From Raja brachyura (Eukaryota), in the NCBI GenBank assembly GCA_963514005.1, contig OY740807.1, positions 34,906,001-34,970,000 on the forward strand: a stretch of 64,000 nt of DNA, read 5' to 3'. Positions 15,751 to 46,779 of this stretch are shown here, one piece after another. The notes below the pieces were generated by a model that saw only the letters and a program-made list of their open reading frames with translations, was not told the origin of the DNA and ran no database searches. Position 1 is the stretch's first letter; each line of letters opens with the position of its first letter. The translations under genes and the position numbers were made by a program.

Positions 15751-17205
15751 TATATGAGATTTATTGAGAATTTAATCAGTCATGATTCCCTAGCTGCCAT
15801 CATGTGTCTCCAAATCATTTGTCCACAACAGTGAATAGTTCATCCAAAAATACATCCGCTGCTTATTGGTTCTTTGGTATCCAAACTTACACGTAAAAAA
15901 TGGAAGAAGACACAACGTTCTGGAGTAACTTGGATGGATATGTGTGTATGGCAAAGTAGGCAAACTAGGCCAACTGTGAAGAAGCTCAGGTATTAGGTTA
16001 TATCATGGGAGAGGGGAACCCTCGTTCCCTAAAGAATGAAGGGAATGGGCACCCGACATTTTGGGTCAGGACCCTTCTTCAGACACGTGAGACATCGTAA
16101 ATAATTGACATGCCAATTAACACTATATAATCATCTGCATCAGAAATAAAAAGGCCACTTTGAAATAAATAAATAATGTGTAATTTAGTGAGATTGGACT
16201 CTAATTGGAGAAAACATTTTCTTTGAGCATCTGTTTCTCGCTGACTCAGGGTATACTGCATTGCTTATTTCAGCTAATTGACAAACCACAATACTCAATG
16301 CCAATCCTGGGTTCTTGCAGTACTGGGACTACATTCCACTTGGCATGGGTTCTGCTGAATTGTGATTATAAACTCACTGGATTTGAATCTGCTCTCAGCC
16401 CATGAAAGAAAGGCCAAAAGATCTCAGTCGATAGTGAGACAAAGCAGTCGGATATTCATTTCATAAAGACTACTACTCCTCAGTAGGAGCCATCCATGCA
16501 GATGTGCCATGGCCTAGAGGGGCACCGTGGGCAAAATCAGTCTGTTTTTTTAAAGAAATCCTGAACGTTTGGCAGGCAAAGAGGGCGATTCTGTTTGAAA
16601 CTTTGAACCACCGTCTCTTGACGTTACAGTTAGTTCTTTGGAAGATGGCCACTGCTGTTTCCAAAGCCAATGACCTGGGGCAAATCCAGAAGAATTATTC
16701 ATCTGGTACTGAAGACTTGGGTGAAGGGAGTCTTCCTTCAACACAGACTTTCTTTGCTCCATGTTGCACCACATGAGGAAATATTTCTTACTGGTGGACG
16801 TTGGTCCAGAACAAATAGACGAAGCAAGAGAGAAAGCAATAGCAAAGCAAGTTTGGATTTAGAGACACAAGGAATTGGAGATGCTGGTTCGCAAAATAAG
16901 ACACAAAGTGCTGGAGTAACTCAGCAGGTCAGGCTGCATCTCTTGAGAGCATGGATAGGTGACATTTTGGGTCAAGACCCTTCTTCAACTCGTATCCGCT
17001 TGCAAAAAAATCCACATCCTAGATGGAGTTTAATCGGAGCAAGTTTGAGGTGTTCCACGTTAGGGGGTCGAGTGTAAGGGGGAAAATATACAATTCACGG
17101 CAAGATCCTTAACATCACTGATGTACAAATAAATCTTGGGGTCCAAACCCCTGAAAGAGAAAATAGCTTGAAAAGCAACTATGACTCATTGAAACTGAAG
17201 AAGTA

Positions 17206-18233
17206 GCAATGTTACAAAATTTTGAGATTTAAAAAATCAAGTCTGCAATTTATCCCATCAGATAAAGCATAAAAAGAAGTTTAATTTGACACCTAATTTA
17301 CTTTCATATCTTCAGTATTAAGAAAGTTATGGCCATTTTCATACTCGGAAATTAGCATCTTGCTCCCCATTGCCTTTCAATTGACTTAACTCAAAAGCTG
17401 TGATCTGGAAAAGTTAAAAGCCCATACTTTCTTAAAAATTAAGAGAACTCAATGAAATTTTAAGTTATTATAGATTGAAGCATTCTGAAACAAATATTGA
17501 ACAATCTTACTTGGATTACCTGAAATTAAAGCATATAATTAGTTAGTTATCTAATTGTAGCTAATTACAAAATTCAATGAGTAGATCTAAACATTTATCC
17601 ATTTCTTAAGAAAAGATAAGCTTTTTTTAAATTGCCTAAGTGTCCAAATAACATTCACACAATAATCCACAATATAACATCATTTTTGAATCTCATTTTC
17701 ATGAATTTCTGCGTCAAATGGAAGGAATTTAGTGTTTGATTCCTGTAAATTAATGGCCATTTAAATCAACTAGCAAGTGGGTTTTAGTGGAATGCGGTGG
17801 ATTGGAACGTTGCGTTTGCGGTGAAGTCGGGAGGAAAAATACTGTTTGTTCATACATTTTTTTGGACCTCATTTCGCAACATAAAAATATTATTAAAGCC
17901 TCCCGAAAAACCAACTTTTAATATAAAAATAAACTATTTACCTTTTTTTCTCCCCTACGGAAAATCCTTCCGGTTGTTGGCGCTCACGGCTTTTGAAGGT
18001 GATTTTTTAATTACTCTAGTTAATAAATAATTTAGAGTAATTTAAAAATACCTTCATTGATGAAATGTCGGAGCGATTTTTCTTCCGCAACGAAATCGCC
18101 CGACATTCATCGATTTTCCAGGTCTGTTGAAAAACGGCACTTTAAGCCCGCCCCCCTCTGAAAGGCGCCAAAGTCGCGCACATGGGGAGCGGCAGAACTG
18201 CAGCGCCGCTAAAGGTAAGTTTTGCAACATACC
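17206..18233 (+). mobile_element. ~1-kb non-autonomous DNA transposon with imperfect 14-bp TIRs, flanked by TA
   Basis: Left GCAATGTTACAAAA, right (reverse complement) GGTATGTTGCAAAA, TA on both sides; a second copy lies inverted at 44617-45594. Confidence 0.75.
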
Positions 18234-39652: not shown

Positions 39653-40898
39653 CAGGCACGTGCCGTCAGGGTAGGCAAGGTAGGCACTGCCCACCCTGAC
39701 TAAAATTATAACATAGTAATAACTAAATATAAATAATAAAGGCATGGGAGAATTATGCCTATGTGAGAGATCGATCTCTTAGGTAGGCATATTTCTCCGT
39801 GCCTTTCATCCGCAGCGCTTGTAACACGGAAGGTCTGTGCAGCCCACGTGCCATCAGCGCTGCTTGAAGCCGTCAGTTTCAATCGGGGCTGAAGGCAGCT
39901 GAAATTCTGCCTTTGCTGTACTGCGCATGCGCATCAGTCTACTGCACATGCGCAGTGCAAGTTTCTTGGTGGGGTTTTCAACTATGGTTTGTCGTGTACC
40001 AATGATGTGGTAAGTACATTTTGTGTTTATGTTTTTAAATACTGTATTTCCCGGGGGTGTGGGGGTGGGGGGAGAGCTCCTTTCACAGCGTTTGGGGAGT
40101 CTGGCAAAGGGGTAAAGTTGCGGGGAGGGCACGAATGTTATGAAGGAGGGGTCGGGAGCATCCACGTGCGACGCTCCTTGCACGGGGGCGTGGAATGCCA
40201 CTGCATTGAGGCCGGGGGGGGGGGAAGAGAGAGAAGTAGCTCGGGTGGCTGAGCGGCCGCCGGGCCGGACAGCGGAACCAGCCGCCACCTTAGCTCCTTC
40301 TGCCGGTCCCCGCTCACCTCTGGCAGCTCTCCGTCTAAAAACCTCTCTCCTGCCGCTCGCTGGCCTCACTCACGTCCTTAAATTCTGACAGCGCGATTGA
40401 GTTTACTCGGCTGTGGGAATTTAAGGATTTGCAGGACATGCCGAAGTCGGTGAACGGCAGGTGACAGGTGTTCCGACGGAAAGCACTGCCAAAGGTGAGT
40501 GGGCCGGCAGAAGGCGCTGAAGTGGCGGCCAGTTCTGCGGTCGGGTCCCGGTGGCCGCTCCCCGAGCTGCTTCTATCCCCAGCTACAGTGTGTGGCTTTG
40601 CGCCCGGAGAGCTGCGGTAGCCGTGAGTGAGTGAGTTACTGGCAGTATCCCCGACATCCTCCTTCTCAACACTCGTGCCCTCCCCACAACTTTACCCCTG
40701 GCACAGACTCTCCACACGCTGTGAAAGGAACTGTTCCCCCAATTGGTCTAGGACTAGGAAGCCTTGGGCAAATTGAAACGTCACTGTTTTTATTTATTTA
40801 TTTATTTCACGGAGAGAACAATCTGCGCATGCGCGGTTTAATTTTTTTTAAAGTGGACTGAGTGCCTACCCTGAGTAATTACTCACGGCAAGTGCCTG
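39653..40898. mobile_element. Non-autonomous hAT-like DNA transposon (1246 bp, CpG-rich)
   Basis: TIRs CAGGCACGTGCCGT(C)AG and CAGGCACTTGCCGT(G)AG; perfect 8-bp TSD GTCCAATT (39645-39652, 40899-40906); interrupts an antisense CR1 fragment; no transposase ORF. Confidence 0.88.
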
Positions 40899-44616: not shown

Positions 44617-45594
44617 TTTGGCGCCTTTCAGAGGGGGGCGGGTTTAAAATGCCGTTTTTCTCCAGACAGTTCAAGTCGATCCATCTCAGGGGATTTAGTC
44701 GCCAAAGAGAAATCGCTCCGACATTTGTTTTATGAAGGTATTTTTAAACTACACTAGATCATTTATTAGCTAGAGTAATTTAAAAATCATCTTCTAAAGC
44801 CATGAGCGCCGACAACGGGAAGGGTTTTACGTAGGGGAGAAAAGAAGCTACACAGTTTATTTTTACATTAAAACGTGGTTCTTACAAAACATTTAATCAC
44901 ATTTTCATGTTGTGAAATGGGGACAAAAAATATATACAAACCGGCAGTATTTTTCCTGCCAACTGTGGGTTAAATTCACCGCAAACCGCAACGTTGCAAT
45001 CCACCGCGTTCCACTAAAAGCCACTCGCAAGTTGTTTTAAATGGCCATTAATTTACAGGAATTAAACACTAAATTCCTTCCATCTGGCCTATAAATTCAT
45101 GAAAATGAGATTTAAAAATCATGTTATATTGTGAATTATTGTGTGAATGCTATTTGGACACTTAGGCAATTTAAAAATGTTTATCTTTTCTTAAGAAATG
45201 GATTGATGTTTCGATCTAGTAATTGAATTTTGTAATTAGCTACAATTAGGTAACTAACTAATGACATGCTTTAATTTCAGGTCATCCAAGTAAGATTGTT
45301 TCATATTTGTTTCAGAATGCTTCAATCCATAATAACTGAAAATTTCATTGAGTTCTCTTAATTTTTAAGAAAGTTATGGGCTTTTGACTGTCCTCGATCA
45401 CAGCTTTTGAGTTAAGTCAATGGAAAGGCAATGGGGAACAAGATGCTAATTTCCGAGTATGAAAATGGCCATAACCTTTTTAATACTGAAGATATGAAAG
45501 TGAATTAGGTGTCAAATTAAACTTCTTTTTATGCTTTATCTGATGGGGTAAATTGCAGACTTGATTTTTAAATCTCAAAATGTTGTAACATTGT
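44617..45594 (-). mobile_element. Second, inverted copy of the ~1-kb DNA element, lacking ~60 bp at one end
   Basis: Colinear reverse-complement match to 17206-18172 (e.g. aaatcaagtctgcaattta.cccatcagataaagc, cccctctgaaaggcgccaaa). Confidence 0.85.
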
Positions 45595-45789
45595 TAATCT
45601 ATGGGGCGAAGGAATTGGAAATAGGCAACATTTCGGGCCGAAACCTATTTCCTTCAAACCCTTGGGTTTCGTCCTGAAACGTTGCATATTTCCTTGCTGC
45701 TGCATCCCACTCAGTTTCTCCAGCATTTTTGTCTACCTAAGTATCATTGAACACTAGTATCTTTGATTTAAACACTCTAGACTCTTGGA

Positions 45790-46160
45790 CGTGGGGCGGA
45801 GGCGGCCGCCGGCCGGTGGGTGGCGCTGCCGCCGGAGATGGCGGACGGGCAACACCGTTACCGTGGGGACGGGCCGGGCCGGGCCGGGCCGGGCCTGGCC
45901 TACAACATGGAGCACGACGGCCCGAAGGGAGATTCGCATGGAAGCGCGGCCGAGGTGGCAGCTTCACACCGAGCGAGCGAGCGAGCGAGAGAGGAATCGG
46001 GGACTCGGGGAGATGCCGCTGGACCCGGACCCGGACCCGGACCCGCTCCAACCCCCGGACGAGCAGCGCTCACTTACACCTCCATCCCGCCCGGGCGCCG
46101 CCGACAAACCCTCCCGCCTGCCGCCTCCCCCCTCAACACACGTTCCGCCCTGCAGCCAGA
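45790..46160 (-). promoter_or_regulatory. CpG island: CRCP promoter, exon 1 and start of intron 1
   Basis: Abrupt GC- and CpG-rich block with GC boxes (ggggcgga), a YY1-like agatggcgg, an X-box-like gttaccgtggggac, short tandem repeats (GGGCC)4, (GCGA)n and (GGACCC)4, and the exon 1 donor. Confidence 0.85.
46078..46085 (-). CDS. CRCP: CRCP exon 1 coding part (ATGGAGGT, ME(V))
   Basis: gcgggATGGAGGT|gtaagt inside the CpG island; purine at -3 and G at +4; phase 2 fits exon 2. Confidence 0.92.
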
Positions 46161-46168
46161 CTCAGGAC

Positions 46169-46296
46169 CAAAGATACTTAGAGGAGCTCCTCTAGTATAT
46201 TTGCTCAGGACAAACTACAGACCAAAGATTATAGAGCTCCTCTAGTATCTTTGCTCAGGACAAACTACAGATTATAGAGCTCCTCTAGTATCTTTG
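46169..46296. mobile_element. Cluster of palindromic micro-elements CAAAGAT...GAGCTC...ATCTTTG with 8-bp TSDs upstream of the CRCP ATG
   Basis: 46169-46203 is a near-perfect 35-bp palindrome flanked by CTCAGGAC on both sides; 46223-46296 is flanked by CTACAGAC/CTACAAAC and contains an internal duplication. Confidence 0.75.
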
Positions 46297-46423
46297 CTAC
46301 AAACCACTTAAGTACTCTCGACTCTTGGATTACGAACTCGCAATCTCATCAGCTGTAACCTCCTAATTATCCCCAAACAGGCAGTAGTGTCAACATTTGC
46401 TGATCCAAGTATGTGATTACTTG

Positions 46424-46529
46424 GAGGTACATTAAAATGCTGGAGAAACTCAGCGGGTGAGGCAGCATCTGTGGAGCGAAGGAAATGGGCAACGTTTTGG
46501 GCCGAAACCCTTCTTCAGTCTCCCCGGGC
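46424..46529. mobile_element. Short Penelope-derived element with a degenerate hammerhead motif
   Basis: Perfect 14-bp TSD tatgtgattacttg at 46410-46423 and 46530-46543. Confidence 0.75.
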
Positions 46530-46779
46530 TATGTGATTACTTGTTCGTATGGCAGACGCTGTCGAGCAGCAGACCCGGTATTGAGATGCTACACTCTAGT
46601 TTAGCATAACTGGGCTGTATGTGGTTGACGTTGAGAGTCTGCGATTGTCCAGAGTTTTGAGCAGGAGAGAGACATTAGATTACCCAAATCAAAATTTTAT
46701 TGTTTTTGTTAACTTTGACGGTGCCAAGTCAGAAGAGTCTTCAATACCTGAACCACCTCACTTAATGTGACATTAGAGT

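Follow-up and report, generated by a model that had tools for sequence, protein, structure and literature searches.

Short palindromes with 8-bp target duplications upstream of CRCP in Raja brachyura resemble P-element excision footprints

Introduction

P-element footprints from fly experiments, vertebrate P-like elements that make 8-bp target duplications, and minisatellites seeded by transposons are all known. In the available sections of PMC7776569, the Drosophila P transposase is described as cutting at the element 3′ end and 17 bp inside on the opposite strand, a long staggered cut that distinguishes it from other cut-and-paste enzymes; it requires internal binding sites, generates 8-bp duplications, makes local hops, and favors promoters. 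Following excision, 17-nt tails stay at the donor site, and the end-joined products consist of the target duplication with partial tails (PMC2895639, sections available). Among the junctions in Table 1 of that study, for which the flies were repair mutants, 28 of the 63 that keep the duplication are 30–38 bp long (3 of 66, which delete past the duplication, are excluded), and an exact 17 + 17 blunt join appears in its Table 3. Excision by zebrafish THAP9 in cultured cells gives larger deletions than the fly transposase (PMC10983969), and the available text of that paper yielded no mapped cut position for zebrafish Pdre; in the parts of the literature examined, the cut position has been mapped for the fly enzyme only.

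Here we describe a cluster of short palindromes upstream of CRCP (RPC9) in a 64-kb stretch of the Raja brachyura genome (64,000 nt, hereafter the window), which a first-pass annotation had presented as mobile micro-transposons.

Results

The CRCP start codon lies at 46085 on the minus strand, placing the palindrome cluster 84–211 bp upstream (Table 1), in agreement with the 85–210 bp given in the first-pass annotation. A downstream exon matches human RPC9/CRCP with an E value of 6e-12, and the distance from the start codon suggests that the cluster lies in the CRCP promoter.

Table 1. Coordinates of the palindromic units, target duplications, and surrounding features in the window
Feature	Position	Strand	Remarks
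CRCP (RPC9) exon 1, coding part	46078..46085	-	GT donor next; presumed exon 1
CpG island	45780..46160		Spans exon 1, 73% GC; palindromic units at both edges
Possible third, broken scar	45737..45765	-	One exact 12-nt end and degenerate neighbor, intron 1; ended by TA-flanked repeat
Target duplication 1, left copy CTCAGGAC	46161..46168		6 of 8 letters as in the Drosophila P consensus GTCCGGAC
Unit A, 35-nt palindrome	46169..46203		Arms of 18 nt (one extra T) and 17 nt
50-bp repeat unit	46184..46233	+	Right part of A, duplication 1, spacer, duplication 2, and start of B
Target duplication 1, right copy CTCAGGAC	46204..46211		Perfect 8-bp match to left copy
Target duplication 2, left copy CTACAGAC	46215..46222		3 bp after duplication 1
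Unit B, 31-nt palindrome	46223..46253		Arms of 14 and 17 nt; gap-free 31-nt units at other loci
Duplicated flank	46254..46271		Repeats duplication 1, the spacer, and duplication 2 (7 letters)
Unit C	46272..46296		B-type unit short of its 6 initial letters (7 nt deleted between two AGA triplets)
Target duplication 2, right copy CTACAAAC	46297..46304		7 of 8 letters as in left copy

The 35-bp palindrome between 8-bp target duplications reported at first pass was borne out as unit A, which sits between perfect copies. The 17-nt right arm carries one mismatch, and once the extra base is removed, 32 of 34 positions pair with their mirror partner, equivalent to 17 + 17. Folded as single-stranded DNA, unit A reaches −7.3 kcal/mol (z −4.85), a stability matched by none of 200 shuffles. 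It possesses terminal inverted repeats with CA...TG ends, a trait of the P superfamily, and target duplications in the 7–8-bp range flank the units of the cluster, agreeing at eight of eight letters around A and at seven of eight around B/C (eight of eight in run X17, one of the four runs from related organisms introduced below). Unit A would represent the joined ends of an excised element.

A second unit had been placed at 46223–46296 with a duplication inside it; the tandem duplication stands, and the supposed single unit is really unit B, a copied flank of unit A, and a cut-down unit C. The 50-bp repeated block starts inside unit A, and at period 50 its copies agree in 37 of 38 letters. A Tandem Repeats Finder run at score 40 left the cluster unreported. 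In its simplest reading, the cluster comprises two insertions 3 bp apart, after which 50 bp were duplicated and 7 bp were lost. Each of two target 8-mers, separated by 3 bp, would have been duplicated, with A in the first and B in the second, and these near-identical scars may then have misaligned to produce a 50-bp tandem unit differing in copy number between species. The probable order of local events, and the resulting A–B–C arrangement, would follow from misalignment of the identical right arms of A and B and then a small deletion. In run X17, the left copy of duplication 2 is identical to the right copy, the orthologous contig carrying an A at 46220.

A tandem 50-bp unit with a copy number that differs between species is a minisatellite (variable-number tandem repeat) trait. 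Run X15 retains unit A and C-type sequence and skips the 51 letters of 46217–46267, and run X17 goes back 82 letters, adding a B-type unit and a perfect second duplication. An 80-nt contig of run X1, of period 50, has a depth of 204 vs 5.5 for the flank (37-fold) and overlaps the end of the promoter contig by 30 letters; in the matching stretch of the window, the first and last 30 letters differ at one place. Because of this overlap and the near-identical ends, we read X1 as containing a period-50 tandem array in the assembly graph. Separately, a 72-nt contig of run X17 that is not tied to the CRCP locus aligns to 46239–46298 at depth 118 with 11 differences and is possibly a second tandem array, with period 42, of a related unit.

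The window was scanned for perfect 8-bp direct repeats around 10-nt arms (up to two mismatches, 20–349 bp), which gave two matches, both from 46169, making unit A the sole such short unit in 64 kb; a relaxed scan added three weaker candidates without perfect duplications. The 12-nt right end (up to one mismatch) occurs four times in the window vs 0.37 expected, a count reached by none of 100 shuffles, and all four occurrences fall within 45754–46296, on either edge of a single CpG island. The impression at first pass that the motif is absent away from the promoter did not hold, given an exact 12-nt right end at 45754–45765 in intron 1, on the opposite edge of the same island, and a dispersed family outside the window. 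Alignment of the orthologous contig of run X1 begins exactly at 45766, beside the intron-1 end; 31 contig letters precede this point, and the site next to it in X1 may be empty or different.

No long element with the family ends was detected in the 64-kb window, and Pfam found no P, THAP, or hAT domain in any of its 105 reading frames of at least 90 aa, returning reverse transcriptase pieces. A scan with the 17-nt arm gave 5 viral and 40 metagenome matches, all 45 of which we treated as chance because none had the partner end with a matching duplication. The two-arm pattern had no match in the prokaryote genomes scanned, and Rfam returned four matches over 45500–46600, every one far under the gathering score.

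Several neighboring features were recorded. Near-identical 16-nt motifs in the same orientation lie at 45774–45789 and 46314–46329, each 8–17 bp from a right end; this pair (family D7) loosely resembles the family arm (11 of 14 letters) and may represent either a binding site or another family of ends. To judge from depth dips, run X15 is without ∼15 letters at ∼46327–46341, at the edge of the second motif. Three of the runs have no coverage over 46312–46432, which we do not count as a result. Two copies of an abundant repeat family, 45597–45740 and 46424–46529, stand on either side of the CpG island: the former is a truncated palindromic form that breaks the intron-1 end at a TA, and the latter has a 14-bp duplication (46410–46423 and 46530–46543). 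A 980-bp AT-rich repeat at 44617–45596 and 17204–18172 (87% identical, opposite orientation) has no obvious terminal inverted repeat and truncates the adjoining palindromic repeat. Farther into CRCP intron 1, 39653–40898 is a 1246-bp noncoding, hAT-like element with 14-bp terminal repeats starting CAGGCAC and a perfect 8-bp duplication, GTCCAATT; its presence explains the CpG-rich stretch at 39.7–41 kb.

Relatives were represented by public assemblies of 4 runs among 19 listed, one each from four related organisms; with orthologous loci in common, the runs are not independent of one another. Alignment was limited to contigs with at least 80% likeness to a 31–35-nt unit, a limit that excludes contigs having a single 17–19-nt arm in common and by which the query biases the size range of the family. 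The alignment tables examined comprised 12 of the 37 rows for indels, 24 of the 158 for loose ends, and 32 of the 2646 for pieces. Among the pieces listed, contigs of 368–1449 nt in all four runs match over only 38–45 letters, and among the rows listed, loose contig ends cluster at the unit boundaries (46220–46221 and 46253–46255). Summed depth over 46237–46261 was 278–475 vs 4.8–6.4 for the single-copy flank, which we read as tens of loci because depth is not copy number and two of the sums include short high-depth contigs. On these data the motif is a dispersed family whose copies have unrelated flanks; the target bias common to them is described below.

Family units are 31–38 nt long with fixed ends and a variable center, in at least seven lengths. 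Among the rows listed, indels relative to unit B sit at the center (46232–46239) and give lengths of 32, 33, 34, 36, 37, and 38 nt, and most depth aligned to unit A without the extra base, corresponding to 34 nt. Some centers recur at high depth, as would be expected of a mobile subfamily (for example, one of +5 at depth 54 in an X13 contig), and 31, 34, and 36 nt are recurrent size classes, some at high depth. Arms of 14–18 nt in the window and lengths of 31–38 nt elsewhere are a trait of P footprints, to be read with size-biased detection and slippage as an alternative in mind. The empty site that was expected of orthologous promoters failed to appear at unit A in any of the four runs, in which orthologous contigs cross the unit and leave no unexplained gap large enough for 43 bp to be missing.

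The right-end flank consensus (11 contigs per run) starts GTTCAAAC, GTCCAGAC, GTTCAAAC, and ATACGGAC in the four runs, a GT....AC preference, and the four rows agree with the P consensus GTCCGGAC at five, seven, five, and six of eight letters, hobo giving the same pattern. Among random sets, 1.8% show the T2, A7, C8 pattern. The P target motif is ATRGTCCGGACWAT (PMC2577343, as available), and hobo/Hermes-type hAT targets, GTTTAAAC and GTNCGNAC, share it (PMC3276498, as available). An 8-bp duplication with a T2/A7 preference is also a hAT trait, and by target motif P and hobo-type hAT are indistinguishable. Flank consensus sequences were 46% GC (195 of 420 letters, hand count, 14 rows), in rows that were selected, contain the target letters, and share loci across species; random window flanks had 33.5 ± 2.8% GC, with none of 500 as high as 46%. 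The eight rows adjoining the TA-flanked repeat have 25% GC (61 of 240), and a mix with about one-fifth CpG-island sequence gives 46%. Together with the cluster of ends at one CpG island, the GC-rich flanks offer only a hint of promoter targeting.

Discussion

The anatomy, dispersal, size range, target bias, and copy-number differences of the units are observed, and we consider the units to be excision footprints of a P-superfamily (THAP9-like) transposon with a probability a little above one-half (∼0.55). In the scheme that we infer, which extends to the parent element and its P identity, the stagger, the route of repair, and the sequence of events, a longer element would have inserted at an 8-bp GT....AC-type target on the CpG-island edge of CRCP, duplicating the target. 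It would then have excised by a long staggered cut that left single-stranded terminal-repeat tails of ∼17–20 nt at the donor site, and end joining would have fused these tails into a palindrome of 31–38 bp with fixed ends and a variable center. There may have been two such excisions, at sites 3 bp apart, and perhaps another in intron 1. By comparison, hAT excision leaves hairpin scars derived from the flank and is not known to leave terminal-repeat sequence in them. Because the center is self-complementary, 34 nt can be 17 + 17, 18 + 18 − 2, or 19 + 19 − 4, and for the same reason the tail length is not fixed at 17 but is allowed to be 17–20 nt. With a family size of perhaps tens to hundreds of copies, the occurrence of two or three events in 560 bp suggests a strong hotspot, as expected of P. 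Centers that have gained or lost short repeats could also be explained by slippage in one master palindrome. The units act like P excision footprints and are candidate members of the P superfamily, membership in which calls for a transposase. Longer repeats with similar ends may exist in skate genomes and were given zero weight in the probabilities stated here.

The first-pass annotation was right about a transposon origin, the 8-bp duplication, and P-like character; its headline of a mobile micro-transposon gives way to the footprint alternative that it had mentioned in brackets, which fits better. For the headline to hold, a hAT or an atypical P transposase would have to cut and paste the 31–36-bp palindrome itself, and slippage or hairpin-tip repair would have to alter the centers later, which we think unlikely. 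Such a miniature inverted-repeat element (MITE) would account for the perfect duplication around unit A, the recurrence of the 31-, 34-, and 36-nt classes, some at high depth, the hobo-like target motif, and the long parent not being seen, but the fly P transposase also depends on binding sites internal to the terminal repeats and makes its cut 17 nt within the element (PMC7776569), the Anopheles P-MITEs are 205 bp and up (PMC1562414), and the family has at least seven lengths in the size range of known P footprints. In units of 31–35 bp in total, there is no room past the arms for the subterminal sites and duplex core required in the fly, and this P-MITE trait is absent. We prefer the footprint because unit size and arm length agree with P excision junctions and because 17-nt staggered cuts would leave a 34-bp element without a duplex core, so that under P chemistry it would be a product rather than a substrate. 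Still more doubtful is the full form of the mobile reading, in which 31–36-bp palindromes would move intact with two terminal repeats only and no need of subterminal sites, home to CpG-island edges, seed promoter arrays, and rank among the smallest animal cut-and-paste elements.

An origin by extreme internal deletion of a longer element with 8-bp duplications (hAT or P), through aborted gap repair or inverted-repeat collapse and without a long stagger, likewise seems improbable to us. Products of aborted gap repair or collapse are expected across tens to hundreds of bases, whereas the listed variants are confined to 31–38 nt and include a symmetric 34-nt class; the query bias in the family size range weighs on the side of deletion here, as do a target motif that suits hobo-type hAT equally with P and the 1246-bp hAT-like element, with its 8-bp duplication, within CRCP. 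A source other than a transposon (local duplication, regulatory palindrome, or assembly artifact) has very little left in its favor: within the window the motif is confined to one CpG island, unit A is retained in all four runs, and the D7 motif pair sits beside both end clusters, but this reading is largely refuted by dispersed copies with unrelated flanks and a common target bias, by recovery of the CRCP locus in independent assemblies, and by the finding of no Rfam family at gathering score.

If the units are P excision footprints, then genome sequence alone would reveal how long a cut a vertebrate P-type transposase makes, which route germline repair takes, and which targets the enzyme prefers. 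For annotators, a palindrome of 30–38 bp between 8-bp duplications may be a scar rather than a MITE. If they are scars, the upstream region of a housekeeping gene has been rebuilt and a repeat array begun, a testable source of regulatory variation. More tentatively, and at odds somewhat short of even, the family may constitute a genome-wide natural record of the fly-type long staggered cut made by a vertebrate P-type transposase, marking open germline promoters.

Literature matches listed for the motif letters were all unrelated by title. Mosquito P ends start CAAAG or CAAGG. The available main text of PMC1562414 contains no such start. Nothing on footprints was found in the available part of PMC1592238, and the portion of the open literature covered contained no report of natural vertebrate P-type footprints or of this motif; the family is possibly already annotated as a short nonautonomous element.

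Among described systems, the Anopheles P-MITEs are likewise nonautonomous and P-type with an 8-bp duplication, but they are at least 205 bp long with ∼100 bp of parental ends, at least six times the size of the units here (PMC1562414). The zebrafish Pdre/THAP9 P-like elements share a vertebrate host, CA...TG ends, and 8-bp duplications with the present family, whereas the 13-bp terminal repeat of Pdre2 differs in sequence and the known derivatives are long, internally deleted copies (PMC10983969). Elements of the hobo/Hermes-type hAT group resemble it in their 8-bp duplication and GT....AC preference. As in transposon-derived minisatellites, an array has been seeded by transposon sequence and target duplications, but the repeat unit here consists of two adjacent scars with their duplications, and no such case was found in the available text of PMC9659126. 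The junctions left by Drosophila P excision are laboratory products of one locus, unlike these units, which are natural, shared between species, and dispersed in a vertebrate, with an unrelated end sequence and a parent that was not found. The likeness to those junctions extends to the 8-bp duplication, 14–19 nt retained per end, a variable center, a length of 30–38 bp, and CA...TG ends (PMC2895639), together with a target consensus similar to that of the family.
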